DNA of 64,000 nt from a virus (IMGVR_UViG_3300030329_005244); one strand, 5' to 3'; shown: positions 5,000 to 63,807, numbered from the stretch's first letter. Program-made: numbers and translations. Notes: generated by a model not told the origin, from the letters alone.

Positions 5000-5518
5000 G
5001 CCCTCGTGCTCAAGTTTGTATCCTGCGCGAGCGATAACAATAGCGTCCGCACGATCAAAAAACTCTGCCTTGGGGTTTCCAAAGCGTGTTGTCGCCACCA
5101 CGAATGTGGGCTCTGTATTGGCAATATGTTCTATCACAACTTTCTTTGCCTTTGTTCCTCTGGGGATTTTTATTCCGCACTGCTTTCGAGCAGAGCCAGC
5201 AGAAATATACTTGGGCTCTTTTCTAAACTCTTCATAACACACCCAAGACACCATGCCATTAAAGCGTGTGAGAAGTGACAAAGTTTTTGCAGAGGACTTT
5301 CCGCCCATAAACATGTGAAGAGATTGTTCAATATAAACCTCATCAATGCCGTAGTAAGTCTTGCGAATGTCTTGAAGCTTATCAACGAAGCGTTCACATT
5401 TAGCAAAAATGTTTTTTTCTTTGCGTAAGTCGAGAGATGTATGGTGAACCAACATTCCTCGTTTGTCTATAACAGCAAAGCCGCAAATGCTTGTGCTGAT
5501 GTCCAAACCTAAAATCAT
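4979..5518 (-). CDS. ruvC: RuvC-like Holliday junction resolvase
   Basis: MILGLDISTS, VYIEQ and DRADAIVIA acidic RNase-H-fold motifs; 179 aa. Confidence 0.85.
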   Translation of the reverse strand: MILGLDISTSICGFAVIDKRGMLVHHTSLDLRKEKNIFAKCERFVDKLQDIRKTYYGIDEVYIEQSLHMFMGGKSSAKTLSLLTRFNGMVSWVCYEEFRKEPKYISAGSARKQCGIKIPRGTKAKKVVIEHIANTEPTFVVATTRFGNPKAEFFDRADAIVIARAGYKLEHEGLTSATG

Positions 5519-6891
5519 ATGTCAAGCCGTAATTTAAACGTAAGATCCTCATCCTCCTTCTTTAAAACAGGATTAGCAAGGGTGGCGACACCAATCAGAT
5601 TCTTGCTGGAATCGTAAATGCCGATTCGAGAGATATACACTTGCCTCTCGAAAGAAGCGGATTGGTGTGCGTAACTAGAGCTTACCACGTTCTGTATTAA
5701 ACGACTACTATTTTCTTCATAAATTTGAGAAGAAGAATGAGCCACCAGATTTTGTCCATATTGAAGGAATGTGGGATTATTAGAATAGTTAACCTCGCCC
5801 CGGCGAGCATTGGTAAACATTGTCACCACCTGAGTGTCAGTTTCTCCCTGGAAGGATGCTCCAAAAGATGCAGAACTATAAGTGGCCGCAGTCGTGGCTT
5901 GAGTGACGCCGTCGTTGGCTCCAGCTCCAAAATAAATCCACTTAGGCTTATATGTGGTGGCGTCATCTTTAATGATTGCCACTTGTTCGCTGGTAAGATC
6001 CCAGGAGCCAGTTAGAAGAATCAAACCTTCTTCATAAAGAACGACGCCCGCGACAGAACCGCTGTTGTCAGGAAGATTAGAATCGTTTCCCAAGTCTCGT
6101 TCGCTGGTTACTTGGATTAATTCTCCGTTTTGCTTAATGTCTTTGACTTCTCCCAAAAGAGAACCAGTCATATACCAACGCAATGAAACTGTGCCTGGAT
6201 AAATGCGTCTTCCATAAAAGATAGAAGGGACAGACAACATATTGATGACTTGTTGATCCTTAATCCACTCATACGTGTCTCCGGTGGCAGAACCGGTTAC
6301 TCTATAATGCTTGCTGCGAGCGCCTAAAAAGTTAAGCCTATTTTTCATAGCCCAGTAATGACGATATTTTAGCTCGCCATGAGTTTCGCACTTTTGAGTG
6401 CTATCGTCACACTCGGTTAAATCTAAATCATCGCCAGTATTAGCATCATAAATTTTAATTAACTTCCCTGCGGTGTCTTTCATGTATTCTCGCACGATGG
6501 AAGCAGACATGGGAAGCTGTCCATACATCGTGTCGCCATAAGAAAACTCATTGGCATAAGCGGTGGCGCCCACTGTGGTAAAGCTGGCGCCTGCACTATC
6601 TTTAGTGATAAAGGGGCGAATGAAAAGATTGCCACCCCGAGATACATGATAGCCATCGGGATCCGTAATGGGTGTTCCTACGCCGCTACTCTTATCGATG
6701 TTATATTCATAAAGGCTTATGTAGCCATGCCCACCAGACACCGATGTCACTGCCGTTCCGTTAAACGAACCTGATCGAGCCGGAATATTATTATAATAAA
6801 TTCCACCATCATAAATGAAAAACTCACTTTGAGGGTGAGCTTTCATTGTGTTTATAATAATATCATTGGTTCCGAACTTTTTAAGGGACAT
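5515..6891 (-). CDS. Virion structural protein with a C-terminal tail-collar/fibre-attachment (DUF3751-like) half-domain
   Basis: C-terminal NYSNNPTF...YISRIGIYDSSKNLIGVATLANPVLK...TFKLRLDI; paralogous to the neighbouring gene; about 10 [ST][GAS]S tripeptides. Confidence 0.65.
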   Translation of the reverse strand: MSLKKFGTNDIIINTMKAHPQSEFFIYDGGIYYNNIPARSGSFNGTAVTSVSGGHGYISLYEYNIDKSSGVGTPITDPDGYHVSRGGNLFIRPFITKDSAGASFTTVGATAYANEFSYGDTMYGQLPMSASIVREYMKDTAGKLIKIYDANTGDDLDLTECDDSTQKCETHGELKYRHYWAMKNRLNFLGARSKHYRVTGSATGDTYEWIKDQQVINMLSVPSIFYGRRIYPGTVSLRWYMTGSLLGEVKDIKQNGELIQVTSERDLGNDSNLPDNSGSVAGVVLYEEGLILLTGSWDLTSEQVAIIKDDATTYKPKWIYFGAGANDGVTQATTAATYSSASFGASFQGETDTQVVTMFTNARRGEVNYSNNPTFLQYGQNLVAHSSSQIYEENSSRLIQNVVSSSYAHQSASFERQVYISRIGIYDSSKNLIGVATLANPVLKKEDEDLTFKLRLDI

Positions 6892-6898
6892 GGTGCTA

Positions 6899-8002: not shown

Positions 8003-8015
8003 TTAATCTCCGTCC

Positions 8016-9026: not shown

Positions 9027-9046
9027 TAATGTACCTCTCTCTCACC

Positions 9047-9056
9047 ATAAATAGTT
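9047..9056 (-). promoter_or_regulatory. Putative late-promoter element AACTATTTAT
   Basis: In a 40-nt intergenic gap, 20 nt upstream of ATG 9026 and its SD GAGG. Confidence 0.5.
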
Positions 9057-9066
9057 GTATTTTTCT

Positions 9067-31884: not shown

Positions 31885-31894
31885 TTAAATAGTG
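31885..31894 (-). promoter_or_regulatory. Putative late-promoter element CACTATTTAA
   Basis: Overlaps the gp25 stop codon, 15 nt upstream of the gp6-like ATG. Confidence 0.4.
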
Positions 31895-46681: not shown

Positions 46682-46979
46682 CTCGTCTCCCTTTATCATC
46701 AATATACAGGTCACCGCTTGGTTTGCCCAGGAATAAGCCGTGGTGCTTAACTCCCCAATGGGTTAATTGCCTCTTCGTAAAGGCATAAAAGGCTTGGTGG
46801 GCATAAGCCGTAGAATTGTCGCTACGTCCCATACCTCGTGCAGTTTGAAAATAGATAGTGTGTCCCTCATCAAAGAGTTTGTTAATCTTATCTATTCGTC
46901 GCTGGAGGGGTTGTGCCTCGTCATACTTCCCGTAGGTATTATTACAGATTGTTCCGTCAATGTCAAATACATAAGTCAT
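46650..46979 (-). CDS. Small HAD-family phosphatase (capsule-biosynthesis phosphatase type)
   Basis: FDIDGTIC, TARG, GKP...YIDDK; ATG 46979 by TAATG coupling. Confidence 0.85.
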   Translation of the reverse strand: MTYVFDIDGTICNNTYGKYDEAQPLQRRIDKINKLFDEGHTIYFQTARGMGRSDNSTAYAHQAFYAFTKRQLTHWGVKHHGLFLGKPSGDLYIDDKGRRDEDFFADEDR

Positions 46980-49573: not shown

Positions 49574-50781
49574 CTTCCCACAATCTCAACTTCGGGAAAA
49601 GGAATGATAAATTTGGTGCCTTGAGCAATAACGCTCTCGTTCTTTTTGATTATCTCTTCAGCAAAATTGTGGGACAACAAGAGATAATAATCCGGCATAT
49701 CGTCCGACCTCTCCTCGGTGATGGGAATGTGAGACTGTGGGAGGTAGTTTCCAATCTTCATTTGATTAATCTCGACCGCCTTGTCAACTAATGTGTTGTC
49801 AATCCCAAAGTAGTTTAACAGCGTGTTTCCCTTCGCTGGGGCCCCATATGCGTAAATGGTCTTATTGGAGGTCTTAATACCCTCCAAAAGTGCGCGGAGA
49901 GAGCCCTGGCGAGCGCGCACAGTGGCGGCAAAATTCTTAAAAGCATCAAGAGTATACCCCTTATCTTTTTCTAACAATTCGAGGTACCTGCTGGTCTTAG
50001 AGTTAAGAGGGCTCTGGCTCAAACAAATCTTTGCAATCACCGACCCACTATGAATTTCGGAATAGTAAGCATCAAAAATCTCCAAACCATAAGGAGCTAA
50101 CAGGTTAGAAAGACTACGCAGTGTGTAATAACACAGGTGCTCGTGATAAATCGTATCAAAGTTGAGCTTTTCCACCATAGTGCCCGCATACATAAACTGT
50201 ACAATAAGAACTCCATCCTCCCTCAAGGAAAATTGAATTCCATCAATAACACTATGGAGTTCCTCTAAATGGAAGAAGACGCCCGAAGCGTTATACAGCT
50301 TAACAGATCGCTCTCCCACATATGCTTCCACGGTTTCGCGATTAAAATAAGCCGTCTCAGTAGGAACGCCATGCTCCCGAGAAATTTGAGAAACCCTCTC
50401 GGCACACTCAATGTTGAGAACCTTATGCATTCCCTGTTTTTGGTATTGAATCAATTGCGTGCCATCATTTCCCCCAATATCCACAATCAAATCCTCTGGC
50501 TGAATGTTAAATTGAGCGATATTCTCTTCCGCTACTTCATAAAAGTGATTCTTTAATGTTTGAGTCATCCCCGAAAGATAACAATGATCTTCAAACATTG
50601 TCTCCTTTGGTACTGTGTGATCAAGTTGTAAAAGCTCACAATCGTGACAATAGTTCAAACGCAACGGATACTTGGGCTCTTTGCCCACCCTTTCAACAGA
50701 AAGAAAATCATTACACCAAGGCTGTTCACCCAAATCTAAAATAAGCTCTAAATTTATGGAGCTACACGATCTACAATTCAT
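49570..50781 (-). CDS. NDP-hexose C-methyltransferase (branched-sugar, TylCIII/NovU-like)
   Basis: CRSC...LDLGEQP...C..C.L.QL zinc site; VDIGGNDG; FDTIYHEHLCYY; HSGS; YGAPAKGNTLLNY. Confidence 0.9.
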   Translation of the reverse strand: MNCRSCSSINLELILDLGEQPWCNDFLSVERVGKEPKYPLRLNYCHDCELLQLDHTVPKETMFEDHCYLSGMTQTLKNHFYEVAEENIAQFNIQPEDLIVDIGGNDGTQLIQYQKQGMHKVLNIECAERVSQISREHGVPTETAYFNRETVEAYVGERSVKLYNASGVFFHLEELHSVIDGIQFSLREDGVLIVQFMYAGTMVEKLNFDTIYHEHLCYYTLRSLSNLLAPYGLEIFDAYYSEIHSGSVIAKICLSQSPLNSKTSRYLELLEKDKGYTLDAFKNFAATVRARQGSLRALLEGIKTSNKTIYAYGAPAKGNTLLNYFGIDNTLVDKAVEINQMKIGNYLPQSHIPITEERSDDMPDYYLLLSHNFAEEIIKKNESVIAQGTKFIIPFPEVEIVGR

Positions 50782-51731
50782 TACTTGTCCTCTCTAATGT
50801 GTTGTATGAAATTTTCAGTGGTATATCGCAGAGCTTTTTGATAGGCGCTTTCCACCATATCTTCATAAGTTTCCCAGTCGGCTACAATATCTTTCACTTT
50901 GCTAAGTAAATCCCCAGGATTGTTAAAATAAAAGAAATCCTTTTCTGGCTCATAATATTGTTCCGCTATATTCCACTGATCGCGTTGCACCAAGTTTAAG
51001 GTACGACTAATGGCTGCTTCATGCATCCGAGTCTTAAATTGAGGCATCACGTTCCACCTCTCAACCTCAGCAAAGGCTTCATTATCCTTCCAATTGGGAT
51101 AAGATTGAATAGCTGGGATGTGTTGAGGATCGATATGTACCAAATTATAACATACCGAAACTTTAGTTTGTGCGATTAAGTTGATTTTTTCTTGAAAAGC
51201 CAAGTTAATATTCGTCGCGAACGGAAGACATTGCGCCGTCGTAGCGTTGATATGGTGATTCATTGTACAATAGCGATATTTGAAATGGGACATCACCTTC
51301 AAACAATCAATGTGCTCAGCGCCATGAATGCCACCGTGATAAATGATATCATAAAGCTTTTCGTGAGGCTGGGGAATTAGGTTTTTATGGAAAGGATAAA
51401 AGATAGGCTTATAAACTTTTTCCAAACCCAAAGTATTCAACCACTTAGAAGTATAAGGACAAATGGAGTAAATTTCATTAAACCAATTATCATATTCAAT
51501 GCCATCATGATCGGGACCTCGGCGTTGAGCAAATTCACAGGGCGCCCAATTATTAAAAAAGATTTTTCTATCACAATGGGAATACGCCTGCTGAAGCATC
51601 ACATTGTTGGGGGCGTTATATCCATACATAAAGATATCACTAGTGTTGGTGCCATCCGATAACTCATTAAAACTCCAATGGTGAGCATTGGTATCTGGAA
51701 CTTCTATGGATAGGTCTCCGACGATTTTCAT
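50781..51731 (-). CDS. Putative glycosyltransferase (GT-B, CgeB/Glyco_trans_1_2-like C-terminus)
   Basis: YDIIYHG...KVSVCYN...FKTRMHEAA...YYEPEKDFFYF. Confidence 0.6.
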   Translation of the reverse strand: MKIVGDLSIEVPDTNAHHWSFNELSDGTNTSDIFMYGYNAPNNVMLQQAYSHCDRKIFFNNWAPCEFAQRRGPDHDGIEYDNWFNEIYSICPYTSKWLNTLGLEKVYKPIFYPFHKNLIPQPHEKLYDIIYHGGIHGAEHIDCLKVMSHFKYRYCTMNHHINATTAQCLPFATNINLAFQEKINLIAQTKVSVCYNLVHIDPQHIPAIQSYPNWKDNEAFAEVERWNVMPQFKTRMHEAAISRTLNLVQRDQWNIAEQYYEPEKDFFYFNNPGDLLSKVKDIVADWETYEDMVESAYQKALRYTTENFIQHIREDK

Positions 51732-52486
51732 TAAAACACTCCTCGCTCTTCAACATTTAAATTGTATTCTTCCAACAGGGGATTCAATTCAGCCCCGTAT
51801 TCACTAAGATTCCACTTACCTTTGACCAAGGCTGTACAAATATGGGGAAAGACGGAAGAATCATGGTGATACATCCCCCTTTTGGGCTCCCCGTGATAAC
51901 AAAAAAGCCCTTCCATCCCTAACTCTTCGCAAGTTTTACTGGCCTGGAACTCAAATGAATTTTCATAATCAGTGTTGGCAATGTGAAGGTTTGGACCACG
52001 CTCATGAACCAACTCTATATGTCGCGTCTTCCAAACGGCTGCCTGGTTGGTGTAAAAGTATGGAAAGAAATTATAAAGAGGATATAAATCCTCATAATTT
52101 TCATAATTTGGATAACGAACATTGACCACCCCACCCTTTACAAATCGGACAAAAGAAACTTTTTGATGCTCTTCCAATATCTGCATATATCTCTTAATCA
52201 AATCTGCGCGCACATCTTCATACAAAATGTAATCTTCGGAGATATAGACGCAATATTTCTCAGGTACCTGCTTAACGCAAGACCAAAATTGTTCCCGATA
52301 CATCTTGTCTTTGTCAAAAAACAAGACTTCATAATCATCGGGAAAATTCTCCTCACATTCATTCACAAACACATATTTCTTTGCGAATAAATCAGGAGGA
52401 ATGTGCTTTTCAATCTGACCAAAAAACATGGGCCACACGTCTTTATTTCGTGTGACCGTATTAATGATTAAACATAAATCTTTCAT
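51731..52486 (-). CDS. Putative GT-A-like glycosyltransferase
   Basis: N-terminal beta strand, YCVYISEDY (DxD-like), QAAVW, LVKGKW; glycan-locus context. Confidence 0.5.
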   Translation of the reverse strand: MKDLCLIINTVTRNKDVWPMFFGQIEKHIPPDLFAKKYVFVNECEENFPDDYEVLFFDKDKMYREQFWSCVKQVPEKYCVYISEDYILYEDVRADLIKRYMQILEEHQKVSFVRFVKGGVVNVRYPNYENYEDLYPLYNFFPYFYTNQAAVWKTRHIELVHERGPNLHIANTDYENSFEFQASKTCEELGMEGLFCYHGEPKRGMYHHDSSVFPHICTALVKGKWNLSEYGAELNPLLEEYNLNVEERGVF

Positions 52487-53838
52487 CTCAACTCTCTAAA
52501 AAAATTATCAACAGTCGCCTTGATGTGAGCCATATTGTCATCATCCATACCAATATAGGTGCCCAAGAGAACAGAGCCACGGCTGGCGATATGGGCATTG
52601 GGGAAAGCCTTTTGTAAATCCCCATAAGGTAAATGGAGTCCGACGTTTCTATAGGCTGGGTGATAAAGCAGATTGCCAGTAAAATAAGGGCGCGTCTGAA
52701 CGTGGTTGAATTCTAAATAATTCACAAACATATTCTTTGTAAAGGAAGAATTTTCCTTAACAATTGGCATATAAGCAAACCAACAGGGATCTGACTTAGG
52801 AGTGGCTTCAGGTAACATAAAAAATTCTTTATAAGGATGGAAAATGGCCTGAAGTTTAGCAAAATTATTTCTGCGCGCTTGCTCCAACATTGGCAGCTTC
52901 TTTAATTGTTCAAGTCCCATTGCCGCCTGCAAATCCAAGGGTTTTAAATTATAACCTATCTCATCAAATACATAGCGATGATCATATAGCAACTGCTTTT
53001 CTGAGGGGAGCCAACAACGAAAGCGATTTCCACACGCAGTTTGACCTGTTACATCGCCCGGCTTCTTCTCGTTACAAAAGCACGCACGACCCCAGTCTCG
53101 CAAGCTCAATAAAGTTTTTTGAAGCGCATAATCATCTGTGGCAATATAGCCGCCCTCCCCAAGAGTCATATGGTGAGCCGGGTAAAAGGAGCAAGTAGAC
53201 ATAAGCCCAAATGAACCTAGTGGTTTTTGATCATAAGTAGAGCCCAGCGCATCGCACGAATCTTCCAAAAAAATCAAACCATATTTGTTTACAATGGCCA
53301 TTACTCGATCCATATCCGGTGGGTTGCCCAACACATGAGCGAAAATTATGGCTTTAATTTCCCTATTAGTGTCAGCTTCCAGAACTTTTTCTACGCTATC
53401 CAGATCTAGATTTAAACTCGGCAGATCTACATCCACAAAAACAGGCTCCAAGCCGTTTTGCAAGAGGGGGTTGACCGTGGTGGGAAAGCACACTACAGGA
53501 GTAATAACTTTGTCCCCCTTGCTAAGGCGATACTTCGTAGGGCATTTAGTTTTAGACATCAAAGCAGAAACCATCAGTAAATTAGCCGAACTCCCCGAAT
53601 TGGTTAGAGCCCCAAGGCGCTTACCTAAATAAGAAGAAAATTCATTTTCAAATTGGCGAGCATTCTTTCCAAACACCAACCAATCGCCCAACAAGCACTC
53701 AACACCCGCCGCGAATTCATCACTATCATAGTGGGGGCCAGAATACCTCACCCAATCATCTTTCTTGACTGCTTTCTTTTCCTCAACATATTCTCTCACT
53801 AATGAAAGAATGTGTTGCAATTTTGCTTCCGAACTCAC
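52483..53838 (-). CDS. rfbH: CDP-4-keto-6-deoxy-glucose 3-dehydrase (RfbH/DdhC, E1)
   Basis: NSGSSANL, FPTTVNP, AHVLGNP, EDSCDALG, SFYPAHHMTLGEGG (His in place of the aminotransferase Lys), Fe-S Cys motif RDWGRACFC...TACG.RF, YDHRY, IGYNLKP. Confidence 0.92.
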   Translation of the reverse strand: MSSEAKLQHILSLVREYVEEKKAVKKDDWVRYSGPHYDSDEFAAGVECLLGDWLVFGKNARQFENEFSSYLGKRLGALTNSGSSANLLMVSALMSKTKCPTKYRLSKGDKVITPVVCFPTTVNPLLQNGLEPVFVDVDLPSLNLDLDSVEKVLEADTNREIKAIIFAHVLGNPPDMDRVMAIVNKYGLIFLEDSCDALGSTYDQKPLGSFGLMSTCSFYPAHHMTLGEGGYIATDDYALQKTLLSLRDWGRACFCNEKKPGDVTGQTACGNRFRCWLPSEKQLLYDHRYVFDEIGYNLKPLDLQAAMGLEQLKKLPMLEQARRNNFAKLQAIFHPYKEFFMLPEATPKSDPCWFAYMPIVKENSSFTKNMFVNYLEFNHVQTRPYFTGNLLYHPAYRNVGLHLPYGDLQKAFPNAHIASRGSVLLGTYIGMDDDNMAHIKATVDNFFRELR

Positions 53839-54665
53839 TTGTAAGTCTCCAAGATTTTATCCAAACCTTCCCAAATGGTATACTCTTGCTCAAATCCCAT
53901 CTGCTTCAACTTAGTAACATCTAAAAACATATCTTTGACTTGAACAATGTCATGAAACTTAGGAGGAACAATAGAGATGAGGGAGCCTCTAGAATTTAAC
54001 TTCTTCTTAGAATATTCCATCATATCTCTAAAACGATGAGGCTCTCCACTTCCAATATTTATTATATCATTAACTGGCATCTTTGTCATACACAATTTTA
54101 ATGCTCGACACACATCATGAACATACATAAAATCACGAATATTCGCGCCATCATCATATAAGTTAATATCCCTATGATTAGCCAACTCATTTATCAAATG
54201 CTGGAGGGCATTACGCTTACCTGAAACCTTTGAGTCGGTTTCTCCATACACATTGGATAAACGAAAAATTCTATAATTTATGCCAAACGTTTCACAGTAA
54301 GAAATCAAAAGCTGCTCGGCTGAACGTTTCGTAATGGAGTAAAAGCCCTTGGGATTGCAGTGACTGCTCTCCGTCGCAGGCAAGGATTCAGTTTTTCCAT
54401 ATACAAACCAAGAACTTACAAAATTAAAAACCAGACCTGGTGTATTCTTGCAAGCTTCCAAAGTTTCTATCAAAGTAGTCAAATTTGTAGCAATATCGAC
54501 ATAAGGGTCGGAAAAAATATTATAATTATGAGTAGTGCTAATCAAATACAACACTTCTGAACTCTGGGGGAGTCGCTCATTGCGGGAGATTTTTATCACT
54601 TCGTCCGCATAGAGATTGCAAAATCGCGTCCCAATAAAGCCCGAAGCTCCATATACCGAAATCAT
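53835..54665 (-). CDS. NAD-dependent epimerase/reductase (SDR)
   Basis: GASGFIG, SSWFVYG, FYSITK, RLSNVYG, RDFMYVHD. Confidence 0.85.
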   Translation of the reverse strand: MISVYGASGFIGTRFCNLYADEVIKISRNERLPQSSEVLYLISTTHNYNIFSDPYVDIATNLTTLIETLEACKNTPGLVFNFVSSWFVYGKTESLPATESSHCNPKGFYSITKRSAEQLLISYCETFGINYRIFRLSNVYGETDSKVSGKRNALQHLINELANHRDINLYDDGANIRDFMYVHDVCRALKLCMTKMPVNDIINIGSGEPHRFRDMMEYSKKKLNSRGSLISIVPPKFHDIVQVKDMFLDVTKLKQMGFEQEYTIWEGLDKILETYK

Positions 54666-55435
54666 TTTTTTTCTCGCTTGTCTCTCGGGATTACTCTCAG
54701 TTTTCTTTCCGCTTCAGTGGCAGGATCATAAGGATCTTGAGGACGCTTCATATATTTGGTGGCCCGTGAGTTTTTAAACTCATCAGGACTATCTGGTTTA
54801 ACATAATAATAAGCAGCGATAGATTTGCGTGTTACATTTTCAGGACACATCAAAGGATCGGGGTGGCCATGATAAGATATATCACTGGTATTAAACACCA
54901 CCAATCTATTAAAAACGGGAGCAATTTTTTGCACACATTCACTCATTGTTGCATCCCACAACTCCAGATGGCTGCCATATTCGTCTAACCAACCCTTATT
55001 CAAATATAAAATACAATTAAGCGCTCGTCTATTCTTAGTTTTATAGTGATAATTAAAATCCGAATGAATATCGAGCTTTCCCCCGCGACAAATTTGATGC
55101 ATTCCCCCCCCCATCAAAGTAGGATCAGCAATCAAGTTCTTACATCCTGAAAGTTCTTCCAAAAAATTTAGAAACAAATCTGAATTTAAAGCGTCGAACA
55201 AAGAGGCTAAGATTTGATTCATCGAATCAATATCGGAGTTTAGCAATTTTTTTTCAAACGTATTGTCGTAGGTATGCCACTTCTTTCCTCTTGGGGGAAA
55301 GCTCTTCACCACCTTTTTAAGAAACTCATCCTCAAACAAGCCATCAATGCATACGTGGGGAAAAGGGGGGGTGGTGCGATATTCTTCTTGTAAATGGTGA
55401 GCAACGGCTTTCAAATCTTGTTTGAAAATTTTCAT
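54662..55435 (-). CDS. 2OG-Fe(II) oxygenase
   Basis: PFPH..ID, GGGMHQI..GG.LDIHSDFN (HxD), LYLN..W...GS.LELW, HGHP, RKSIAAYYY. Confidence 0.88.
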   Translation of the reverse strand: MKIFKQDLKAVAHHLQEEYRTTPPFPHVCIDGLFEDEFLKKVVKSFPPRGKKWHTYDNTFEKKLLNSDIDSMNQILASLFDALNSDLFLNFLEELSGCKNLIADPTLMGGGMHQICRGGKLDIHSDFNYHYKTKNRRALNCILYLNKGWLDEYGSHLELWDATMSECVQKIAPVFNRLVVFNTSDISYHGHPDPLMCPENVTRKSIAAYYYVKPDSPDEFKNSRATKYMKRPQDPYDPATEAERKLRVIPRDKREKK

Positions 55436-55443
55436 TTTGACTC

Positions 55444-56256
55444 CTATTCATATCCGCAAAAATATCTTCTTACAAATCGCGCATCTCGGTGTAAGTGGTG
55501 AAAGACCAATTCCGAAAGCTGTCCATTAAATTCAAGTAACTCGGGAAAATGTAAATCGAGAGAAACACCATATTTGGCAGCCAATCCGGGGCGCTGCCAA
55601 ATATCGATAGAATCATAAACCGGACGGTTGCCAGAGCCGTGGTGGTAAATCAAATCATCATACACTCCAAAATTAAGAGGATGAAGATTAAAACAGTTAG
55701 TTCGCAGCAACCGCCTCCACTCATGACCATTCTCATCGAGCCATTTTTTAAGCAACACGCCCGCACACGAAGCTCCTTGTGCAGGGTCTAACTCCCACGA
55801 CAGCTCGTTTTCCTTCCAAAAACCCACAGTAGTGGCCAAAAAACAAGGGTGAGGGTAAGGACGCTGATCATCGCGCAATAAAGGTTCAATATTCTCTTCA
55901 CGACTAATGGCCACAATAGGAGTGCTCATTAAATATTCTTCAATTTTTTTATTCCAATTTGGCTGAATGGGTAAAGCATCAGGATCGAGAAACATTAAAA
56001 TATCATCGTCTTCTGCATTATCAACAAACTTCACCAAGGCATTCATCTTTACATAATGATAATTGGGAAGAGAAGAGATGTCTACAACCTTGTATTTGGT
56101 GAGACGGAGATTATATTCTTCGACCATAGTACTAGGGTTAATCTCTGTAATTCCACAATACACTTGATATGGCTCTTCCGTAAAGGCATTCAAATAAGCC
56201 GATTGTAAATTAAGCCATTTACCAGTTTTATGGTGATTGGTAATAATATGAATCAT
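55444..56256 (-). CDS. Putative GT-A glycosyltransferase
   Basis: ILMFLDPDALP (DxD), HPCF, IYHHGSG; glycan-locus context. Confidence 0.55.
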   Translation of the reverse strand: MIHIITNHHKTGKWLNLQSAYLNAFTEEPYQVYCGITEINPSTMVEEYNLRLTKYKVVDISSLPNYHYVKMNALVKFVDNAEDDDILMFLDPDALPIQPNWNKKIEEYLMSTPIVAISREENIEPLLRDDQRPYPHPCFLATTVGFWKENELSWELDPAQGASCAGVLLKKWLDENGHEWRRLLRTNCFNLHPLNFGVYDDLIYHHGSGNRPVYDSIDIWQRPGLAAKYGVSLDLHFPELLEFNGQLSELVFHHLHRDARFVRRYFCGYE

Positions 56257-56891
56257 TGCTGTGCGCCCTTAATGAAAACCCACGAAGGAGCATCCGCATC
56301 ACCCTTTTCTGGATTGGTTCCTGTAATCTTAAATGATAAGCCATGCTTTTCAGCGAATTCGTTGACAGCCCGCTTGGTGCCAGGATTGGTTTCGTTATAG
56401 TCGTGGCCTGCCATAATTCCTCCCGGCCTTACTTTGGGCCACCAATCTGCAATATCTTGAGTAACTGCATCATAAGTGTGCTCCCCATCGATGTAGACAA
56501 AATCCACAGTTTCGGGGGCTACAAATGGGGCTACAAGGTGCGAATAAGACCTATAAAGCGTACCTTTGCCACCCCCCACATCGCGCAGGAGGGCCATGGT
56601 GTAAACGTAGCGTGTTTCTTGCCATTTATAGCCGTCGTCTCCAAGTTCCATAGGATCAAAACCTGGCGCCTTGGGATCCACATCTTCATAACTCTCGGTC
56701 GCCACCCACGGGTCAATGCCGTAAATGTGCATCGAAGTTCGCAACAACAGGTGCCGCATATACCAACCCTGCCATACCCCTATTTCCACGCCCAATTGGT
56801 AAGTTTTGGGCAAACTATCGAGAAGCAAATATCGATCTTCTAAATTTAATTGGTCAAAAGTCAAAGGATCGGGCTTTAAAACAAATTCCAT
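56253..56891 (-). CDS. SAM-dependent methyltransferase (Methyltransf_24-like)
   Basis: GVEIGVWQG, GIDPW, DFVYIDGEHTY..V..DI..WWPKVRPGGIMAGHDY. Confidence 0.88.
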   Translation of the reverse strand: MEFVLKPDPLTFDQLNLEDRYLLLDSLPKTYQLGVEIGVWQGWYMRHLLLRTSMHIYGIDPWVATESYEDVDPKAPGFDPMELGDDGYKWQETRYVYTMALLRDVGGGKGTLYRSYSHLVAPFVAPETVDFVYIDGEHTYDAVTQDIADWWPKVRPGGIMAGHDYNETNPGTKRAVNEFAEKHGLSFKITGTNPEKGDADAPSWVFIKGAQQ

Positions 56892-56893
56892 CT

Positions 56894-57496
56894 TTAATAT
56901 TCCTTAAATAAATCAAATTCCCTTAAGTCCCTATATGGAGGATTCTCGGGAATATCTGGATTGTCCTCTGGGAAGTTTTGCATCAATGCTAAGCCGTGAG
57001 CGGCTTCTTGAGGCGTCATATACATATTCCACCCATTAAGCCAGATGTTGTCATCGTGATACTTCACAGGGCTGCGACCTTCATAGCGGGCCTTCTTGAA
57101 CCAATCAACCGCCTCTTTGTTGTCGGTTAAAATCATCCCCCCTTTTCCAATCTTCAAGTGCTTCTTGATGTGAAAAGAGAGAGTCATAAACGCACCGGGA
57201 ATATACATTCCCGAAGTAAATCGCTTAGCAGCATCATAAATGGGATAAGGTTTGAGTTGATAAACTCCTTGCCACTCTCTGTCATCAAATTTTAAAGTGC
57301 CTCCTGCGTGCAATATAGATTGCGGCACAGAAAGATAAGTACGAGCCGGGATGGTTACCTCGGAGATGCCCAAATGAGTACAACACAAAAATAAAGCGCT
57401 CGTACAACTATCAACTGATACTGCGTAAGGGGCGCCTGTATAATCGGCTACCGTTTCTTCAAACATTTCAACAATCTTAAAAGGATTGTGCCTCAC
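56894..57496 (-). CDS. Short DegT/DnrJ/EryC1/StrS-family PLP aminotransferase (200 aa)
   Basis: FEE.VA.YTG..YAVSVDSCTSAL, V.IPA.TY, DAAK, SFHIKKHL..GKGGMILTD, GWNMYM. Confidence 0.8.
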   Translation of the reverse strand: MRHNPFKIVEMFEETVADYTGAPYAVSVDSCTSALFLCCTHLGISEVTIPARTYLSVPQSILHAGGTLKFDDREWQGVYQLKPYPIYDAAKRFTSGMYIPGAFMTLSFHIKKHLKIGKGGMILTDNKEAVDWFKKARYEGRSPVKYHDDNIWLNGWNMYMTPQEAAHGLALMQNFPEDNPDIPENPPYRDLREFDLFKEY

Positions 57497-57885
57497 ACTT
57501 TCTCCAAAATAAAATATTTAATTTTGTAGCCATTCTTACTAAACAAATTAAAACTGGCTAAATTACCTGTCTTAACTTTAGCCAGAGCGCCAGGGTGTGA
57601 CTTGTGAATCTCTTGGAGCATAAATGACCCAACCCCTTTTCCTTGATGGTCGGGATGGGTAGCAACCCGAATATCGTCATCTATAACGCCAATATAACCC
57701 GCAGCCTTATCATTTGCAAGACAAATGTAAAAACATTCTCCATATTTGGACATATATTTTTTTTGTTGGTCTTCGGTAATGTGTTCTTGTTGAATAAATC
57801 CTTGTCGCACACCATCCAAATTTCGGAGATTTCTAATGAACTCCCAATACTTTTCTTCGTTTTTTACGAATGTCAGAGTGGCCAT
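57493..57885 (-). CDS. GNAT N-acetyltransferase (PseH-like)
   Basis: IRNLRN...I..D.Q..Y; HPDHQGKGVG acetyl-CoA motif; N.AS..LF.K.GY. Confidence 0.8.
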   Translation of the reverse strand: MATLTFVKNEEKYWEFIRNLRNLDGVRQGFIQQEHITEDQQKKYMSKYGECFYICLANDKAAGYIGVIDDDIRVATHPDHQGKGVGSFMLQEIHKSHPGALAKVKTGNLASFNLFSKNGYKIKYFILEKV

Positions 57886-58673
57886 ATGTCTACTTGATCT
57901 CCAAATTTGTCACCACTCTTATACCAATAGTGGGTGAGATAGCCTCGGGTATGCTTCCACCCCTCCAAATTCAAAAGAGGGTTGAGGCAACTACCAATAT
58001 CCAAAAAAGTATTATGAGGATTGTCCTTAAAACAATCGTGAATCACAAAGTTACTTAAACTCGCTGCTGAGCACAGAATGACGTGATTTCGTATCTTATT
58101 CTCTTCAATATATTTCCGTACTTCCTCGGCTATATGATAATCGTTAATCATGCAGTTAGAGCCAATTTCAAAGGCTTTCTTTACATCAAAGGGGAGCCTG
58201 TCTAAATTAGCAAGCTTGTTGACTACATAAATAATATCTCGATGGGCAAAAAGAGGAACCATCTCCTCCACAAACCGGCGATAATTGGCATTAATGAGAA
58301 GATTAGAAAAAGTAAGATGATCATCTTCCCCTTGGTGCAGTTCTAATTGATATTTGAAATTCTCCACCCCCACATGTCCATCGGAGGGAGTGCAAATGCC
58401 TTTAAAATAACGGGGCTGTGAATGTTGAAAACATTCAATCAATTTCTCCCGATATTTCTGGTGTTTCTCGGGATAAAATTCTTTTTGTTCTTCCTCTGTG
58501 TAGACGTTGGCACCTTTAATATCGCCAGTAACATAGTGCTTTTCAGCCAGCACTACCGTCTTGTTTTGCATAATGAACAATTCGCCATCCGAAAACCGCG
58601 AAAAAGCGAAGTTCTCACCACGCTTTAGCATTCCCAAAATCTTATCAAATTCTCCTTGAAAAGTTTTACTCAT
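57873..58673 (-). CDS. GT-D fold (DUF1792-like) glycosyltransferase
   Basis: FAFSRFSDGEL N-terminal motif and FLDIGS C-terminal motif. Confidence 0.65.
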   Translation of the reverse strand: MSKTFQGEFDKILGMLKRGENFAFSRFSDGELFIMQNKTVVLAEKHYVTGDIKGANVYTEEEQKEFYPEKHQKYREKLIECFQHSQPRYFKGICTPSDGHVGVENFKYQLELHQGEDDHLTFSNLLINANYRRFVEEMVPLFAHRDIIYVVNKLANLDRLPFDVKKAFEIGSNCMINDYHIAEEVRKYIEENKIRNHVILCSAASLSNFVIHDCFKDNPHNTFLDIGSCLNPLLNLEGWKHTRGYLTHYWYKSGDKFGDQVDIWPL

Positions 58674-59658
58674 GAAGTTCCTCTAATAATATCTCTACAA
58701 TCTGCTGTGAAGCTGTGCCGTCCCCATAAGGGCAATCAGCCTTGGGGATGTGATCCCGAAGAACATTGTAAAAATTCTCCTCAACATTGTTTAAATCAGT
58801 CATATACGCAAACTCTCCCATTCCTTCAACACGCTCCGTATAATCTCGACACACCAAGCTCTTCTTGCGAAAGAAAGATGATTCTTCCTGAATTCCGCCG
58901 CTGTCCGTAATCACCATAAAAGCAGATGCCATCAGTGGCAGAAACTCTGCGTAAGGCATTGGTGGAACTACCTTAACGTGCTTCAACAAATCCTTGTGCT
59001 TATAAACGTTAGGATTGGGATGGATGGGAAGGATAAACTCAAACTTGGGGTTCTCTCTCGCCAACTTATCAAATTTAGCAAACCACTCTGGAATAAGGTG
59101 GTGATTTTCGCGCCGATGCATGGTAATCACCACACGATAAGTATACATGGGAAAATAATGGGAGAGATTGTCCAACACCGTATTTCCAACAGTAAAAATC
59201 TTACCATCCACCTTTTCTTTTTTTAAATTATCGGCACTAATCTCTGTCGGAGCCAGATGAATGTCTGCCAGCGATGAGATGGCTCGCCTATTAAACTCTT
59301 CTGGATAGGGGTGGTACTTATTAAAAGTTCTCAGCCCTGCTTCCAGATGAATAACTTTAATCTTTCGGTGAAATGCCGCCAGAGCCACTGCAAATGCCGA
59401 TGTCGTATCGCCCTGGACGATGACTGCCTTAATGCCCTCGAAAATATCATCACGATTCATCACCGAAGACACAATCGAATCCAGACGATTAGAGCCCTCT
59501 TCGATTTCTAGCCGACTCGTGTGGGCATCAACATGGGCCAACAAATCCGTATGCTGTCCCGTGAATAACACTCGAAAAGGAATTTCTCCTCTCATCTCCG
59601 CCATCAAGGGCTTGATTTTAATATACTCGGGTCGTGTGCCAAAACTGATCAAAATCAT
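58666..59658 (-). CDS. wecB: UDP-N-acetylglucosamine 2-epimerase (non-hydrolysing)
   Basis: GTRPEYIK, TGQH, VQGDT, HLEAGLRT, PEEFNR, GNTVLD, TMHRREN, HPNP, TDSGGIQEE, TER.E, PYGDG.AS. Confidence 0.95.
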   Translation of the reverse strand: MILISFGTRPEYIKIKPLMAEMRGEIPFRVLFTGQHTDLLAHVDAHTSRLEIEEGSNRLDSIVSSVMNRDDIFEGIKAVIVQGDTTSAFAVALAAFHRKIKVIHLEAGLRTFNKYHPYPEEFNRRAISSLADIHLAPTEISADNLKKEKVDGKIFTVGNTVLDNLSHYFPMYTYRVVITMHRRENHHLIPEWFAKFDKLARENPKFEFILPIHPNPNVYKHKDLLKHVKVVPPMPYAEFLPLMASAFMVITDSGGIQEESSFFRKKSLVCRDYTERVEGMGEFAYMTDLNNVEENFYNVLRDHIPKADCPYGDGTASQQIVEILLEELHE

Positions 59659-61271
59659 AATTTAACTCCTCGCACCGTTTTCCATCCCCCACGTAAGCCC
59701 GTCTGAACACAATTATCTCTTTCGCCAAAGAACTGCTTGTGGGAAATAGCGCTATTGGTTGACGTTGCTTTGTTATCTATTCCCAACTCGTTGCCTAGCA
59801 CCGATCCATGCATTTCCACGTCCTGTGGGGGGTGTGGAGGGCAGTAAGTTTTTATTCCGGCATACTTCTGTGCTAGATAAGAAAATTGTATATCTTCGCC
59901 ATTGTGCCAGGTTGTAGGCTTTTCACGCCAGAGGTATTGTAGCCACTCTCTTTTGAAGAACCAGGCATGCCCCACCAGGTCCACCTCTGTCGTCTGAGAG
60001 TTCTGAGTGGGCCACCCACATCGGTCGTGCTGTACATACTGAGAGCCTTTAAGGATGACTCCTGCGCTACCCAAAATACCTTCCGTTTCGGACATCGTAT
60101 TTAGACAATTGTCAAACCACTTGGTTCCTGGGACAGTATCGTCATCAAAGATAGCGACAAATTCAGTATCCACAAGCAACGCAGCAGCGAATCTGCCATA
60201 GAATTTCCAGTTAAAATCGTTGTGAAATACCCTGTCAACATCAAGCGAAGTAAAGTCAAAATCTTTATTATCCTCGTGGGCGTTTACCCAAAGCCAAATC
60301 TGTTTAGGTGCCCTTGTTTGATTGCGAATCGCTTCAATCTGCATCTTCAAATTGTAAGGACGCCTGTAGGCGTTCAAGATGACGGTGATGTCGGCTTCTT
60401 TTTCTTCTTTTTTGTCAACCCTTTGAAGTGCCTCGGTAATTTTACCAAAAACCACATCACGTTGTTGCTCCACGAAATCAATTAATTGCTCTCCTTTGTA
60501 TTCTCGAAACCAATCTTCGGATGTACAGCCGTTCAGCGAATTGGTGGACAACTTAAGCCCAAGCATTCGGGCTTCCACCACAACTCGATTAAAACTTTCC
60601 AATACTTTAGGAAAAAAAACAAGCCTCTCACATGGAGCCATTTGAGAAATAAAACCCTCGTATTCGGGAGATGCTATTAAGACAGCGTGCCACTGGCGTT
60701 TAGAGCAAAATTCTACTGCCTCGCGAGCATTCTTAATAGGATTAGCGCTATTCAACACCGCCGCAACCGGCTGATGTTCGCTTTGAGCATATTTCCGCAA
60801 CACCTTAATCTGTTTTTCAGACCACAAACTCATACCGAGATTGATGACATTCTGACTTCTTAAGTTCCGCTGAATGCAGCTTGCATGAATTTTAGATTGA
60901 GCAAAAACATTCTTGGCGTGAACATAGAATTCTTTAAATCTAATTCTGTCGGGGGGAACAAGAAAGTCTTTATAATGGGAGGGATCTCTCTCCACAATGT
61001 ATTTGTGATCATGTTCCAGAATGCTATAGCATCCGCGAACCTTCATCAATTCTTCATAAGCCGTTGTGGTAAGATTGCAAAAATTAGAAACGATAAACTG
61101 AAAACCGCTTTTTCTATACAAGCGGATGTGCTTATCGGTAATAAGGTGGCTTCTAAAGCGTATGACTTTGTGTCCTGATTTTTTCAACAATGAAATGAGG
61201 ATGCCGTCATAAATTTCAGCACCCCCCTTCACTTGATCTTCAAAAAAATCAGAAATAAAAATTATCTTCAT
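59655..61271 (-). CDS. Two-domain glycosyltransferase (N-terminal GT-B-like plus C-terminal GT2/GT-A)
   Basis: N-terminal GGAE...ESFNRVVVEARMLG; C-terminal ITVILNAYRR...VAIFDDDTVPG...GEDIQFS. Confidence 0.8.
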   Translation of the reverse strand: MKIIFISDFFEDQVKGGAEIYDGILISLLKKSGHKVIRFRSHLITDKHIRLYRKSGFQFIVSNFCNLTTTAYEELMKVRGCYSILEHDHKYIVERDPSHYKDFLVPPDRIRFKEFYVHAKNVFAQSKIHASCIQRNLRSQNVINLGMSLWSEKQIKVLRKYAQSEHQPVAAVLNSANPIKNAREAVEFCSKRQWHAVLIASPEYEGFISQMAPCERLVFFPKVLESFNRVVVEARMLGLKLSTNSLNGCTSEDWFREYKGEQLIDFVEQQRDVVFGKITEALQRVDKKEEKEADITVILNAYRRPYNLKMQIEAIRNQTRAPKQIWLWVNAHEDNKDFDFTSLDVDRVFHNDFNWKFYGRFAAALLVDTEFVAIFDDDTVPGTKWFDNCLNTMSETEGILGSAGVILKGSQYVQHDRCGWPTQNSQTTEVDLVGHAWFFKREWLQYLWREKPTTWHNGEDIQFSYLAQKYAGIKTYCPPHPPQDVEMHGSVLGNELGIDNKATSTNSAISHKQFFGERDNCVQTGLRGGWKTVRGVKL

Positions 61272-62527
61272 TAGTCAAACTCTAATATTTCTTCTTCCAC
61301 GCGCTCTGACGAGATTCCTATGGCGGCACAAACTGCCTCTACCATCTCTGCATACTTCTTTTCTTTGGAAAACCTATCTTGCACTTTTTGGGCATACTCG
61401 TCAAATGTTCGCTGCACTTCTTCTGCGTTCTCGCCGGTTAAGTGGATATAACACTGGCGCATTTGCTGCCGTGCCGATTGTTCACGGGGATAAGCCCAGC
61501 CCGATTCCTTAATAATCACATTTTCCCACACTACAGGCTCAGGAACCGCTTGAATATCATATGCGACATCATAAAAGCATGCCTTGTTTTCCTCTTTGTC
61601 GAACAAAAAGTCAAGCTGCCCAGACCACCCGGCACAAATGACGGGAACACCGGTATACGCACACTCAAAGAGAGGCAAGCCAAATCCCTCTCCGTGGGTA
61701 AGCGCCACCAATGCTTTAATCTTTGGATGTTTATAGAGAGAATGCATCTCTTCATCCGTCATATCCCCATGAAGGAGATATACCTTACATTTTCTATCGG
61801 CATATTCGGTGTTTAAGAGTTGCCGCAAATTGTGAAACATCTTTTCTCTATCCATAAGACAATTCTTCGCAATGTTGCTTTTCAAAACAAGCCCCACTTC
61901 CTCATGGCGAAATTCTTCAACAAACCATTTAATGGTGTTAACAAGATTCTTCCGAGGGCCAAATTGAGCCACTGTGAGAAAATTGAAATCATACTCCAAC
62001 TCAAGTTCCACTGGGGGAAGATTATCAAACTGCTTGGCTGGATAATTCACTGTTGTAATTGGGGTGTTTAATCGAACCTCGAATGATTCCTGTGTTTGGT
62101 TATTTGTGGCAGTATAGGTGGTGTTCTTATAAGAATCACGAGCATGATCCGACACCACCACAATACCATCCATCAAATTGCCACGCTGGAGCCACTGAGC
62201 AGCAACCTGCGTAGTTTCAATACCGGCTGTATAGCCAATGTTAATAGGGGCTATTTTGTCCCATTCATTAGGAATAGTAACTTGAAAAGAAGCATCATAC
62301 TGACCTCCTTGTTGGACATAAGCAATTGTCTTTTCGATGGCATCATCAATCCACTTCCTATCCACAGTATCTTCGTTTACCCATGAGGTTTGTCCCCACT
62401 GGAGGGGTTGGATGAAGATTTCAAACAAATCTGGGCGCGACTTGAGCGCTCTTAAAGCAAAACGAGATTGCTCGCCGTATCCGCTTCGCGTCAACAGCGG
62501 TCCTCTAAAAAAGATTTTCTTTTTCAT
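61271..62527 (-). CDS. Glycosyltransferase family 4-like (GT-B)
   Basis: SGYG, RKN, GEGFGLPLFECAYTGVPVI...WSGQLDF; ATG 62527 (SD GGAGG, ATGA overlap). Confidence 0.88.
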   Translation of the reverse strand: MKKKIFFRGPLLTRSGYGEQSRFALRALKSRPDLFEIFIQPLQWGQTSWVNEDTVDRKWIDDAIEKTIAYVQQGGQYDASFQVTIPNEWDKIAPINIGYTAGIETTQVAAQWLQRGNLMDGIVVVSDHARDSYKNTTYTATNNQTQESFEVRLNTPITTVNYPAKQFDNLPPVELELEYDFNFLTVAQFGPRKNLVNTIKWFVEEFRHEEVGLVLKSNIAKNCLMDREKMFHNLRQLLNTEYADRKCKVYLLHGDMTDEEMHSLYKHPKIKALVALTHGEGFGLPLFECAYTGVPVICAGWSGQLDFLFDKEENKACFYDVAYDIQAVPEPVVWENVIIKESGWAYPREQSARQQMRQCYIHLTGENAEEVQRTFDEYAQKVQDRFSKEKKYAEMVEAVCAAIGISSERVEEEILEFD

Positions 62528-63807
62528 GCGACCTCCTTCAAGTGCCATCGCTTATAGCCTTTGCGTGTATCCCAAGAGCCATGCTTTTCTACAATCTTGT
62601 CCATCGTGTCTATCCATTGTTGTTGGAATTGAGCAAAACTATAGCGCTCCTTAACATGCTTCATTCCTCGACGGGACATTTCCTTATATTTTTTATCAGT
62701 TACCCTAATTGCCATCTTCATGACGCGATTAAAATCATCTTGGGACATCCTATCTTCGTAAATATAGGGCACCTGGAGGGAGCCAATCACAGACTTGGAA
62801 GCGGGCTTAATACCCCACCCAAACCAGTGCTTACCGTTTGTCACTTGCTCCTGCAAGCCACCTGTCATGTTCACAATAATGGGAGTTCCACATGATAATG
62901 ATTCGAGTGTGGAAAGCCCGAAGCCTTCCGCATCAGAAATGTTAAGAGTAAAATCGGCAGCGTTATAAAGAGCTGCCAAGTGTTGCGGCTCCACTTTGTT
63001 GGTGGAGAGCAACACTTGCCCGTCGCTAACACCTAGATGTTCAATAATGTGAGGCAAGTCCTGCCCATGAGGATCGCGAGCGTCCGTGTGCATCAAGAGT
63101 GTAGCCTTGTCGTGCCCCACCTTATCCAAGAACTCCTTGAACCACCAAATCAGAGTGCCGCTTTGCTTGCGGCGAGCATTTCGGTTGTTCCAAAAGAAAA
63201 TCTTCTTATTGGGATTAAAATACTTTGTACTAGAGTGCAAAATTTGATGGCGCGTGTGAAAGGAACGCGCAGTATCCTCATCATTGCTATAAGGATAGAA
63301 CACCTCACCTTTTACTGCATGAGGAAGATAATGAGTAGATACGGAAGGAGCCACTTCATCTACAATTTTCTTAGTAACTTTAGAAATACACACCACCTCG
63401 TCAGTAGACCGATAAAAAGGACCGTTATACGCAGGCGCAGGGAAGTTGTCCCACACATGATAATATACCATGGGCATATTGGCTCGAATTTCATTTTCAA
63501 TCTCCCATAGCCAGCCAAAGAAACGCGGGTCTGTCATAAACCACAATACGTCTGGACGTTCTTTTTGAATAATTGAACGAATTGTCTCATGGTTTCCATA
63601 CCCATCCACAGGAAAGATTCTCCAATCATTATCCCACGGATCAACCCGCATCATGCGATAATCTTGATGCTTAATAGCTGCACCAAGGCAAATAAAAGAA
63701 TATCTCCCCGTATGGAGAAGGGTTTCAATCATATTCTTCGTTTGTGTCCCTACCCCGCTTGGACTGAGCGGGTGATCTGCTAATACTAATACTTTTGTTT
63801 TTTTCAT
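62524..63807 (-). CDS. Glycosyltransferase family 4-like (GT-B)
   Basis: SGVG, PHAV, NRNARRK, LYNAADF...SDAEGFGLSTLESLSCGTPII...GG; ATG 63807 preferred. Confidence 0.88.
   Translation of the reverse strand: MKKTKVLVLADHPLSPSGVGTQTKNMIETLLHTGRYSFICLGAAIKHQDYRMMRVDPWDNDWRIFPVDGYGNHETIRSIIQKERPDVLWFMTDPRFFGWLWEIENEIRANMPMVYYHVWDNFPAPAYNGPFYRSTDEVVCISKVTKKIVDEVAPSVSTHYLPHAVKGEVFYPYSNDEDTARSFHTRHQILHSSTKYFNPNKKIFFWNNRNARRKQSGTLIWWFKEFLDKVGHDKATLLMHTDARDPHGQDLPHIIEHLGVSDGQVLLSTNKVEPQHLAALYNAADFTLNISDAEGFGLSTLESLSCGTPIIVNMTGGLQEQVTNGKHWFGWGIKPASKSVIGSLQVPYIYEDRMSQDDFNRVMKMAIRVTDKKYKEMSRRGMKHVKERYSFAQFQQQWIDTMDKIVEKHGSWDTRKGYKRWHLKEVA

Follow-up and report, generated by a model that had tools for sequence, protein, structure and literature searches.

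The tripeptide [ST][GAS]S (serine or threonine, then glycine, alanine or serine, then serine) is strongly enriched in a set of outer tail proteins encoded by a 64,000-nucleotide stretch of viral DNA, IMGVR_UViG_3300030329_005244 (hereafter the window), whose source is an uncultured marine T4-like ('far-T4') myovirus with relatives. The motif has the properties of a short linear signal with a fixed order and under purifying selection; it is carried on unrelated outward-facing domains, and other parts of the virion avoid or reverse it. Its distribution among phages follows that of two adjacent genes of glycosyltransferase (GT) family 4, termed GT4 #1 and GT4 #2, in a GT locus that immediately precedes the baseplate module and shares its strand. 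We regard the chances as evenly balanced that [ST]-[GAS]-S is a phage-encoded cytoplasmic O-glycosylation sequon on virion proteins. This reading ranks first, followed by a structural motif as the main rival, then by another modification or a docking signal, with a sugar locus acting on the host envelope or on phage DNA as the least likely.

A preliminary description of the window estimated about 60, 15, 10 and 8 copies of the motif in proteins of 3450, 549, 458 and 367 amino acids (aa), and the counts are 64, 16, 10 and 8. Composition shuffles give expected counts of 14.7, 3.8, 2.1 and 2.7 (z = 13, 6.4, 5.4 and 3.5, respectively), and the enrichment thus survives the shuffling proposed as its check. 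The low counts described for three other proteins are reproduced, with no site in the gp6-like 598-aa protein, one in the 336-aa protein and two in the 2174-aa protein; the 45 window proteins other than the four rich ones, these three included, contain 21 sites in total versus 27.9 expected. The claim that composition alone is insufficient holds, and repeats and shared domains also fail to explain the excess. An unbiased scan of all tripeptides places SGS (27 versus 4.4) and TGS (21 versus 3.4) as the top two and reveals no enrichment of [ST][GAS]T.

The codons are diverse at all three positions of the motif and every synonymous codon is used, indicating that selection acts at the protein level; a DNA-level cause, such as a repeated nucleotide motif, is ruled out by this diversity. 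The sites are dispersed and lie outside low-complexity tracts, as originally proposed, with only 8 of the 98 falling within 11-mers dense in S, T, G and A. The spacing of sites in the giant 3450-aa protein is Poisson-like, with a coefficient of variation of about 1 and therefore no periodicity, and the protein has no internal repeats. A low-complexity or tandem-repeat artefact is ruled out by the dispersed sites and the absence of repeats. A hydrophobic lead-in had also been suggested and is present: hydrophobic residues fill position -2 at 0.48 of the sites and position -1 at 0.44, versus a background of 0.32, and acidic residues are depleted at position -1.

The motif is directional. The 549-aa protein harbors six T[GAS]S and no S[GAS]T tripeptides, in agreement with the initial count, and the ratio of T-x-S to S-x-T in motif-rich proteins is 44:16 in the window, 58:12 in the related genome G001, 57:16 in Flavobacterium phage immuto and 28:10 in Microcystis phage Mel-JY01 (187:54 when pooled). 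In the other window proteins the bias is reversed (6:26). Family comparisons used five related near-complete genomes, G001-G005, whose orthogroups are bimodal in the ratio of observed to expected motifs. The high-ratio orthogroups (2.3-4.3) comprise the giant protein (3.9, with T-x-S to S-x-T at 105:29), the 549-aa protein, the 458/367-aa proteins, a 147-aa family, the gp13-like adaptor, the sheath and the capsid protein. The low-ratio orthogroups (0-0.7) comprise gp6, GroEL, DNA polymerase, SbcCD, terminase and one unknown tail protein. Of the 63 sheath sites, 62 fall outside the C-terminal core alignable with T4 gp18, and 19 of 22 sites in the capsid protein lie in an expanded insertion between two segments that align with T4 gp23. 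The sheath outer domains and the capsid insertion are parts that we take to face outward, on the basis of established T4 structures. The tail tube of G001 has no site (0.5 expected), and the 336-aa protein has one versus 1.9 expected, with a family ratio of 0.85.

Individual virion proteins of this family display further features. The 336-aa family is opposite to its neighbors in that [ST][GAS]T is enriched 2.25-fold and S-x-T prevails over T-x-S by 14:2. The strongest single-protein avoidance of the motif found is in a 983-aa S/T/G/A-rich protein (L094:13440-16391; G001 153440-156391), which has one motif versus 10.1 expected, lies between motif-rich genes and has no match in a PHROG search. 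The genome G002 contains two tandem tail-sheath paralogues of 1009 and 990 aa (134132-137161 and 137289-140261; L132/L133), each with 12 motif sites in its outer domains.

The enrichment extends across homologues. The 549-aa protein has 319 relatives in IMG/VR, and the motif is enriched 4.25-fold across 80 of them and 3.6-fold across 62 homologues of the giant protein; in 82 homologues of the gp6-like protein it is depleted (34 versus 127 expected). Approximately 10 sites of the 549-aa family hold their position across 50 non-redundant homologues that share roughly 50% overall identity, with residues swapping within the motif class, as in one alignment column occupied by TAS, SSS, SAS and TSS. 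These conserved sites have S or T at position 1, G, S, A or C at position 2, and S over T at position 3 by 424:25. Motif serines of the 549-aa protein are more conserved than its other serines (0.70 versus 0.38; p = 5e-4). When gains were sought in non-homologous parts of the giant protein, almost all of it proved alignable to some relative.

The motif-rich proteins do not share a common domain that could have carried the motif with it. By BLAST, the 458- and 367-aa proteins have a C-terminal domain in common and the other rich proteins are mutually unrelated, and 120 hhalign profile comparisons among rich families and segments of the giant protein reach a maximum probability of 2.5%, with shallow alignments. 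A single proliferated decoration domain with a built-in motif is thus unsupported by either method, the second being limited by alignment depth. A search for related loci with the 458-aa protein as query returned only four. The label 'DNRLRE-like' previously attached to the 549-aa protein is based on a match below threshold (E 8e-4, 19.5 bits versus a cut-off of 34). An AlphaFold 2 (AF2) model of this protein consists of a chain of beta-sandwiches with a predicted local distance difference test score (pLDDT) of 63, and fold searches matched only generic immunoglobulin- or FN3-like beta-sandwich arrays. Motif sites in the model occupy strand starts, strand ends, strand interiors and loops, and therefore have no single structural context.

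GT4 #1 is present in all 15 informative contigs of the family at 55-70% identity and in immuto at 32%, and its family comprises more than 7,700 clusters at 90% identity in metagenomes, many of them from Tara. Among ∼50,000 GenBank phages, strong homologues (E 2e-62 to 3e-30) are restricted to immuto, Mel-JY01, Rhodothermus phage RM378 and one uncultured huge phage, which are the nearest relatives of the family by capsid and gp6; two further phages have weak generic GT4 matches (E 2e-8). In four contigs (G009, G010, G011 and G013), the aligned stretch of GT4 #1 contains one or two in-frame TAA codons, which could reflect alignment past the stop or real interruptions.

The comparison of motif and GT4 pair across relatives, suggested at the outset, reveals enrichment in every lineage with the pair, namely the marine family, immuto, Mel-JY01 and RM378. 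In immuto, whose GT4 pair is gp181/gp180, proteins after gp6, tail spikes and fibers are enriched (e.g. 60 versus 20.4, 17 versus 3.0 and 7 versus 1.4), and gp101, gp056 and gp111 are among those with motif peptides; Mel-JY01 has six enriched proteins (e.g. 18 versus 5.6 and 11 versus 1.9); and the signal in RM378 is weaker (8 versus 1.7 and 6 versus 1.2). Phages without the pair show no such enrichment, as illustrated by the virion proteins of T4 (38 versus 38.4), the giant S/T-rich proteins of cyanophage P-HM2 (near expectation, with no direction bias at 87:113) and the baseplate region of the huge phage LR756511 (20 versus 22.6). A general trait of phage fibers or of S/T-rich virion proteins is ruled out by T4 and the P-HM2 giant proteins. 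Co-occurrence in essentially one clade versus its outgroups constitutes one evolutionary association rather than many. Separately, a 610-aa protein of P-HM2 (10357-12189, L112) has seven motifs versus 1.4 expected and no direction bias (3:2), and is an unexplained outlier in a phage without the GT4 pair.

GT4 #2 has orthologues in G001-G005, immuto, Mel-JY01 and RM378 (p014, detectable by profile only), and in all lineages it lies next to GT4 #1 and follows it. The E-x7-E box is invariant in 14 GT4 #1 and 6 GT4 #2 orthologues, that of GT4 #2 being the invariant HGEGFGLPLFEAA. The AF2 model of GT4 #1 (pLDDT 82.6; predicted template modeling score 0.84) adopts the GT-B fold with two Rossmann domains and matches GT4 structures in Foldseek with E values of 6e-18 to 1e-13, the nearest folds in the PDB being chlorovirus B736L, MshA, sucrose-phosphate synthase and BshA. 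A model of the two proteins together supports a heterodimer: the interaction prediction score from aligned errors (ipSAE) is 0.85 versus 0.00 for the best control, contact agreement is at least 92% and partner pLDDT at least 87. Of 80 solved complexes, 58 attain this mark, as do 2 of 110 mismatched pairs. At the modeled interface, the invariant C-terminal tail of GT4 #1, residues 426-433, docks on a strand of GT4 #2; such a role would explain why this tail is conserved, since it is disordered in the monomer model.

The glycan locus of about 21 kb noted in the preliminary description is confirmed at 42761-63825. Its approximately seven predicted GTs were an overcount: three are firm (the two GT4 proteins and a GT2) and two are weak (a GT-D-like and a Glyco_trans_1_2-like protein). 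The other enzymes are a UDP-GlcNAc 2-epimerase, a GNAT protein, two DegT aminotransferase-like proteins, O- and C-methyltransferases, a 2-oxoglutarate (2OG)-Fe(II) oxygenase, several short-chain dehydrogenase/reductase-type epimerases and dehydratases including dTDP-glucose 4,6-dehydratase, a cupin, a PfkB kinase and a cytidylyltransferase. As initially noted, the locus carries no lipid-carrier, flippase or export genes; all 25 locus proteins are devoid of transmembrane segments, Pfam detects no membrane initiating transferase, Wzx/Wzy or ABC exporter family among them, and their family matches include no secretion genes. The cassette between the GT4 pair and a 231-aa gene ranges from 14 to 26 kb and varies in gene content between family members, leaving only the GT4 pair conserved within the locus. 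Judged by gene content, this layout is that of a putative conserved primer followed by variable elaboration. The 538-aa protein with a GT2 domain has orthologues in G001, G004 and G005, and a GT2 also follows the GT4 pair in immuto; searches of PDB sequences with GT4 #2 and the 538-aa protein returned nothing useful.

Two of the cassette genes have counterparts in other phages. The 2OG-Fe(II) oxygenase (54662-55435, minus strand) belongs to the prolyl-4-hydroxylase-like superfamily (PF13640), and a gene close to the tail genes of Mel-JY01 (L101:3096-3695) is annotated as a prolyl 4-hydroxylase; the window enzyme may tailor sugars or may be a protein hydroxylase and hence a second virion modification. 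A 200-aa DegT/aminotransferase-like open reading frame (56894-57496, minus strand) corresponds to no more than the N-terminal portion of the fold. It is kept as a short gene in G001, G002, G003, G004 and immuto (29-68% identity), and so appears to be a maintained truncated protein rather than a pseudogene.

An ordered and selected motif on unrelated, exposed carriers is what would be expected of a site recognized in trans by an enzyme. Three points are inferred: enzymatic recognition of the motif, the identity of the enzyme as the GT4 pair, and the glycan nature of the modification. Cytoplasmic O-glycosylation is favored because the GT4 pair comprises the only enzymes found to track the motif across host phyla and heads a soluble cassette without another apparent acceptor. 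In the proposed mechanism, the sequon [ST]-[G/A/S]-S, usually placed after hydrophobic residues, would mark outward-facing domains of the virion, which include distal baseplate and fiber proteins, sheath outer domains, the capsid insertion domain and the gp13-like adaptor. A cytoplasmic GT4 heterodimer would prime the Ser/Thr sites with a first sugar in late infection, and the neighboring strain-variable soluble cassette (GT2, other GTs, and amino-, methyl- and deoxy-sugar enzymes) would extend the glycan. The outcome would be a strain-specific sugar coat over the virion surface. The full proposal, that a heterodimeric GT4 recognizes a three-residue sequon and adds the first sugar at dozens of sites on each virion protein that faces outward, while a hypervariable cassette builds strain-specific glycans, in effect a viral O-antigen, is held tentatively, at slightly less than an even chance.

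A number of observations weigh against a glycosylation sequon. The nearest structural relatives of GT4 #1 use small soluble acceptors rather than proteins, and its top 50 structural neighbors include no known protein O-glycosyltransferase, GtfA and SdgB among those sought. The enrichment in RM378 is only weak, and the association of motif and GT4 pair, representing one clade versus outgroups, could be a coincidental co-inheritance. The depletion in conserved cytoplasmic proteins of the GroEL type may be typical of those families and not specific. The distribution suggests that the motif is restricted to exposed virion domains, with exposure judged indirectly by domain architecture and DSSP context. 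The papers searched on immuto, Mel-JY01 and RM378 are silent on glycosylation, and a search found no paper on the motif or on virion glycosylation in the lineage. Hydrophobic flanks and placement at strand boundaries are atypical of sequons recognized on folded proteins, and most of the excess in the 549-aa family arises from the approximately 10 anciently conserved sites, for which a structural role would also fit.

The last two points lead to the main rival, in which the motif is a structural or physicochemical trait peculiar to the exposed beta-rich domains of this lineage, such as a strand cap, a turn, or an anion or polysaccharide contact, with no modification and a sugar locus that serves otherwise. 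Many sites are indeed ancient and lie at beta-strand boundaries beside hydrophobic residues, the 549-aa family has no excess of young, lineage-specific sites, and the glycan on these virions is putative. However, the carriers belong to unrelated families without a shared domain, and the secondary-structure context of the sites is heterogeneous. Position 1 is rarely replaced by D or N, unlike in Asx/ST-turns, and no glycine-specific turn is required, since position 2 tolerates G, A, S or C. In T4, P-HM2 and LR756511, proteins that are likewise exposed and beta-rich are without the motif, and S/T-rich neighbors in the same virion avoid it or reverse its orientation. A purely structural motif is accordingly considered rather unlikely, albeit the strongest of the alternatives.

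A motif that behaves as a linear recognition signal might also be read by a trans-acting factor outside the glycan locus, for another modification (phosphorylation, acylation or one linked to hydroxylation) or for docking of an assembly chaperone, with the GT4 proteins acting on a non-protein soluble acceptor. The small soluble acceptors used by the closest folds of GT4 #1 would agree with this, as would the 2OG-Fe(II) oxygenase in the locus. Against it, no kinase or alternative writer is seen among the window proteins, the GT4 pair is the only element found to track the motif through four lineages with different hosts, and a sugar cassette of 14-26 kb beside the tail module needs an acceptor, of which no other is apparent; we consider this explanation improbable. 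Weakest is the view that the locus remodels the host envelope (lipopolysaccharide or capsule, superinfection exclusion) or glycosylates phage DNA, its proximity to the motif-rich proteins being coincidental: serotype conversion and DNA glucosylation are the best-known functions of phage GTs (as cited in PMC12619734) and the variability of the cassette resembles that of O-antigen loci, yet the locus has no transmembrane protein, phosphoglycosyl-transferase, flippase, polymerase or exporter, the GT4 pair is kept in phages of both Bacteroidota and Cyanobacteria, two phyla with different envelopes, the ThyA/dCMP-hydroxymethylase family (PF00303, Thymidylat_synt) is absent from five of five related genomes, four of them at least 90% complete, so that the known route to glycosylated DNA is missing, and the motif is left unexplained, which together render this view very improbable.

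All genes of the window are on the minus strand, and the order of transcription begins with the sugar locus (63825 down to 42761) and continues with the baseplate and tail module. Within this module, the gp25-like gene is followed by the gp6-like wedge, the 549-aa protein, the giant protein, more tail proteins and, at the end, the 367- and 458-aa proteins.

Features of the window that bear on the motif and the sugar locus, in order of transcription
Feature	Coordinates	Strand	Remarks
GT4 #1, 433 aa, retaining GT-B glycosyltransferase	62524..63825	-	Pfam Glycos_transf_1; lineage core gene; candidate priming enzyme (catalytic subunit A)
GT4 #2, 425 aa, divergent GT4	61271..62548	-	Weak Pfam match; predicted heterodimer partner
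538-aa protein, C-terminal GT2 domain, unknown N-terminal half	59655..61271	-	Pfam Glycos_transf_2 slightly below cut-off
Variable soluble sugar-nucleotide synthesis/tailoring cassette	42761..59658	-	Family matches; no transmembrane segment
231-aa conserved gene, unknown function	41278..41973	-	Borders variable cassette on tail side
gp25-like	31885-32256	-	Baseplate module member, next to gp6-like wedge
gp6-like inner baseplate wedge, 598 aa	30073..31869	-	PHROG baseplate wedge; motif-avoiding internal control
Baseplate protein, 549 aa	28424..30073	-	Motif-rich; directly after gp6
Giant distal baseplate/fiber protein, 3450 aa	18082..28434	-	Motif-rich
S/T/G/A-rich tail protein, 336 aa	8016..9026	-	Motif-free-type internal control, reversed direction bias
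Tail protein, 367 aa	6899..8002	-	Motif-rich
Tail protein, 458 aa	5515..6891	-	Motif-rich; C-terminal domain homologous to 367-aa protein

The 231-aa gene has no match in Pfam or PHROG and is conserved at 49-70% identity in G001-G005 and at 30% in immuto. Close to it, between the sugar cassette and the tail module, a 112-aa protein (41939-42277, minus strand) contains the sole clear transmembrane segment in the scanned region 41278-63825; it has a weak PKD_channel match and is kept in G003-G005. The phage family also carries its own GroEL-type chaperonin (L088:2970-4616; G001 22970-24616; PHROG 5725, E 5e-139).

If true, the glycosylation reading would make this the first sequon to be defined for the glycosylation of phage virions, and its enzyme would represent a new class of cytoplasmic protein O-glycosyltransferases directed by a sequon. 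The virions of a myovirus lineage that ranks among the most abundant in the ocean would be sugar-coated by a simple dedicated rule with strain-variable chemistry, which would bear on marine phage adsorption, on resistance to proteases, grazers and aggregation, on evasion of recognition by hosts or predators, and on why phages carry large 'auxiliary' islands of sugar genes. The motif and its enzymes would also offer a compact portable tag and enzyme pair for engineering glycoproteins in the cytoplasm. A direct test is feasible, as three cultured relatives (immuto, Mel-JY01 and RM378) carry both the motif and the GT4 pair.

Several known systems resemble parts of the proposed one. Unlike an O-antigen or capsule locus, the sugar locus has no membrane initiating transferase, Wzx/Wzy or ABC exporter, and unlike phages with T4-type DNA glycosylation, the five related genomes carry no gene of the pyrimidine hydroxymethylase family. 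Giant viruses, such as chlorovirus PBCV-1 with its Vp54 protein and mimivirus with its fibrils, use their own soluble GTs and rare-sugar pathways to decorate capsids or fibrils, with atypical acceptor rules; the PBCV-1 glycans are N-linked. The phage is similar in its virus-encoded GTs and sugar pathways, and the best structural match of GT4 #1 is the chlorovirus GT B736L. In contrast, giant viruses infect eukaryotes, and the likeness to B736L is generic for GT4 (17% identity).

In the glycosylation of serine-rich-repeat protein (SRRP) adhesins, and in the related O-glycosylation of the GtfA/B type in lactobacilli, GtfA and GtfB form an adjacent GT4-type complex that O-glycosylates serines in S-small-S contexts in the cytoplasm. 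GtfB is catalytically inactive, the SRRP acceptors are long low-complexity Ser-rich repeats exported by an accessory Sec system, and the GT-D fold was first seen in this pathway. The phage likewise has two adjacent GT4-like subunits, predicted by the complex model to form a heterodimer, and a weakly detected GT-D-like protein. Its GT4 proteins differ in lacking the GtfA/GtfB sequence signatures (no match to TIGR02918, TIGR02919 or DUF1975 at E<=0.01 in Pfam or NCBIfam) and in the absence of GtfA and SdgB from the top 50 folds; both subunits keep the EX7E box, unlike GtfB, and the sites are dispersed in folded beta-rich domains rather than in long low-complexity repeats. The hexapeptide SASSAS is an O-glycosylation signature of Lentilactobacillus S-layer proteins (PMC10221546), which resembles the phage case as a Ser-small-Ser motif on a surface lattice protein. 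It differs in that each S-layer protein has one clustered hexapeptide and the phage has dozens of dispersed tripeptides, with enzymes that are unrelated as far as tested.

Glycosylation of mycobacteriophage virions was reportedly described by Freeman et al. in Cell Host Microbe in 2023. PMC12619734, which cites that work, describes virions of mycobacteriophages glycosylated by phage GTs, with glycans on the C-terminal tails of capsid and tail-tube subunits. The two systems would be alike in having phage-encoded cytoplasmic GTs that act on the phage's own structural proteins, and they are alike in the location of these GTs beside structural genes. We know of no defined sequon for the mycobacteriophage system. 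The present system differs in its phage lineage, its GTs and its far larger sugar cassette, and its candidate sites, in contrast with those of mycobacteriophages, are dozens of dispersed internal tripeptides on baseplate, fiber, sheath, adaptor and capsid insertion, with no enrichment in the tube.

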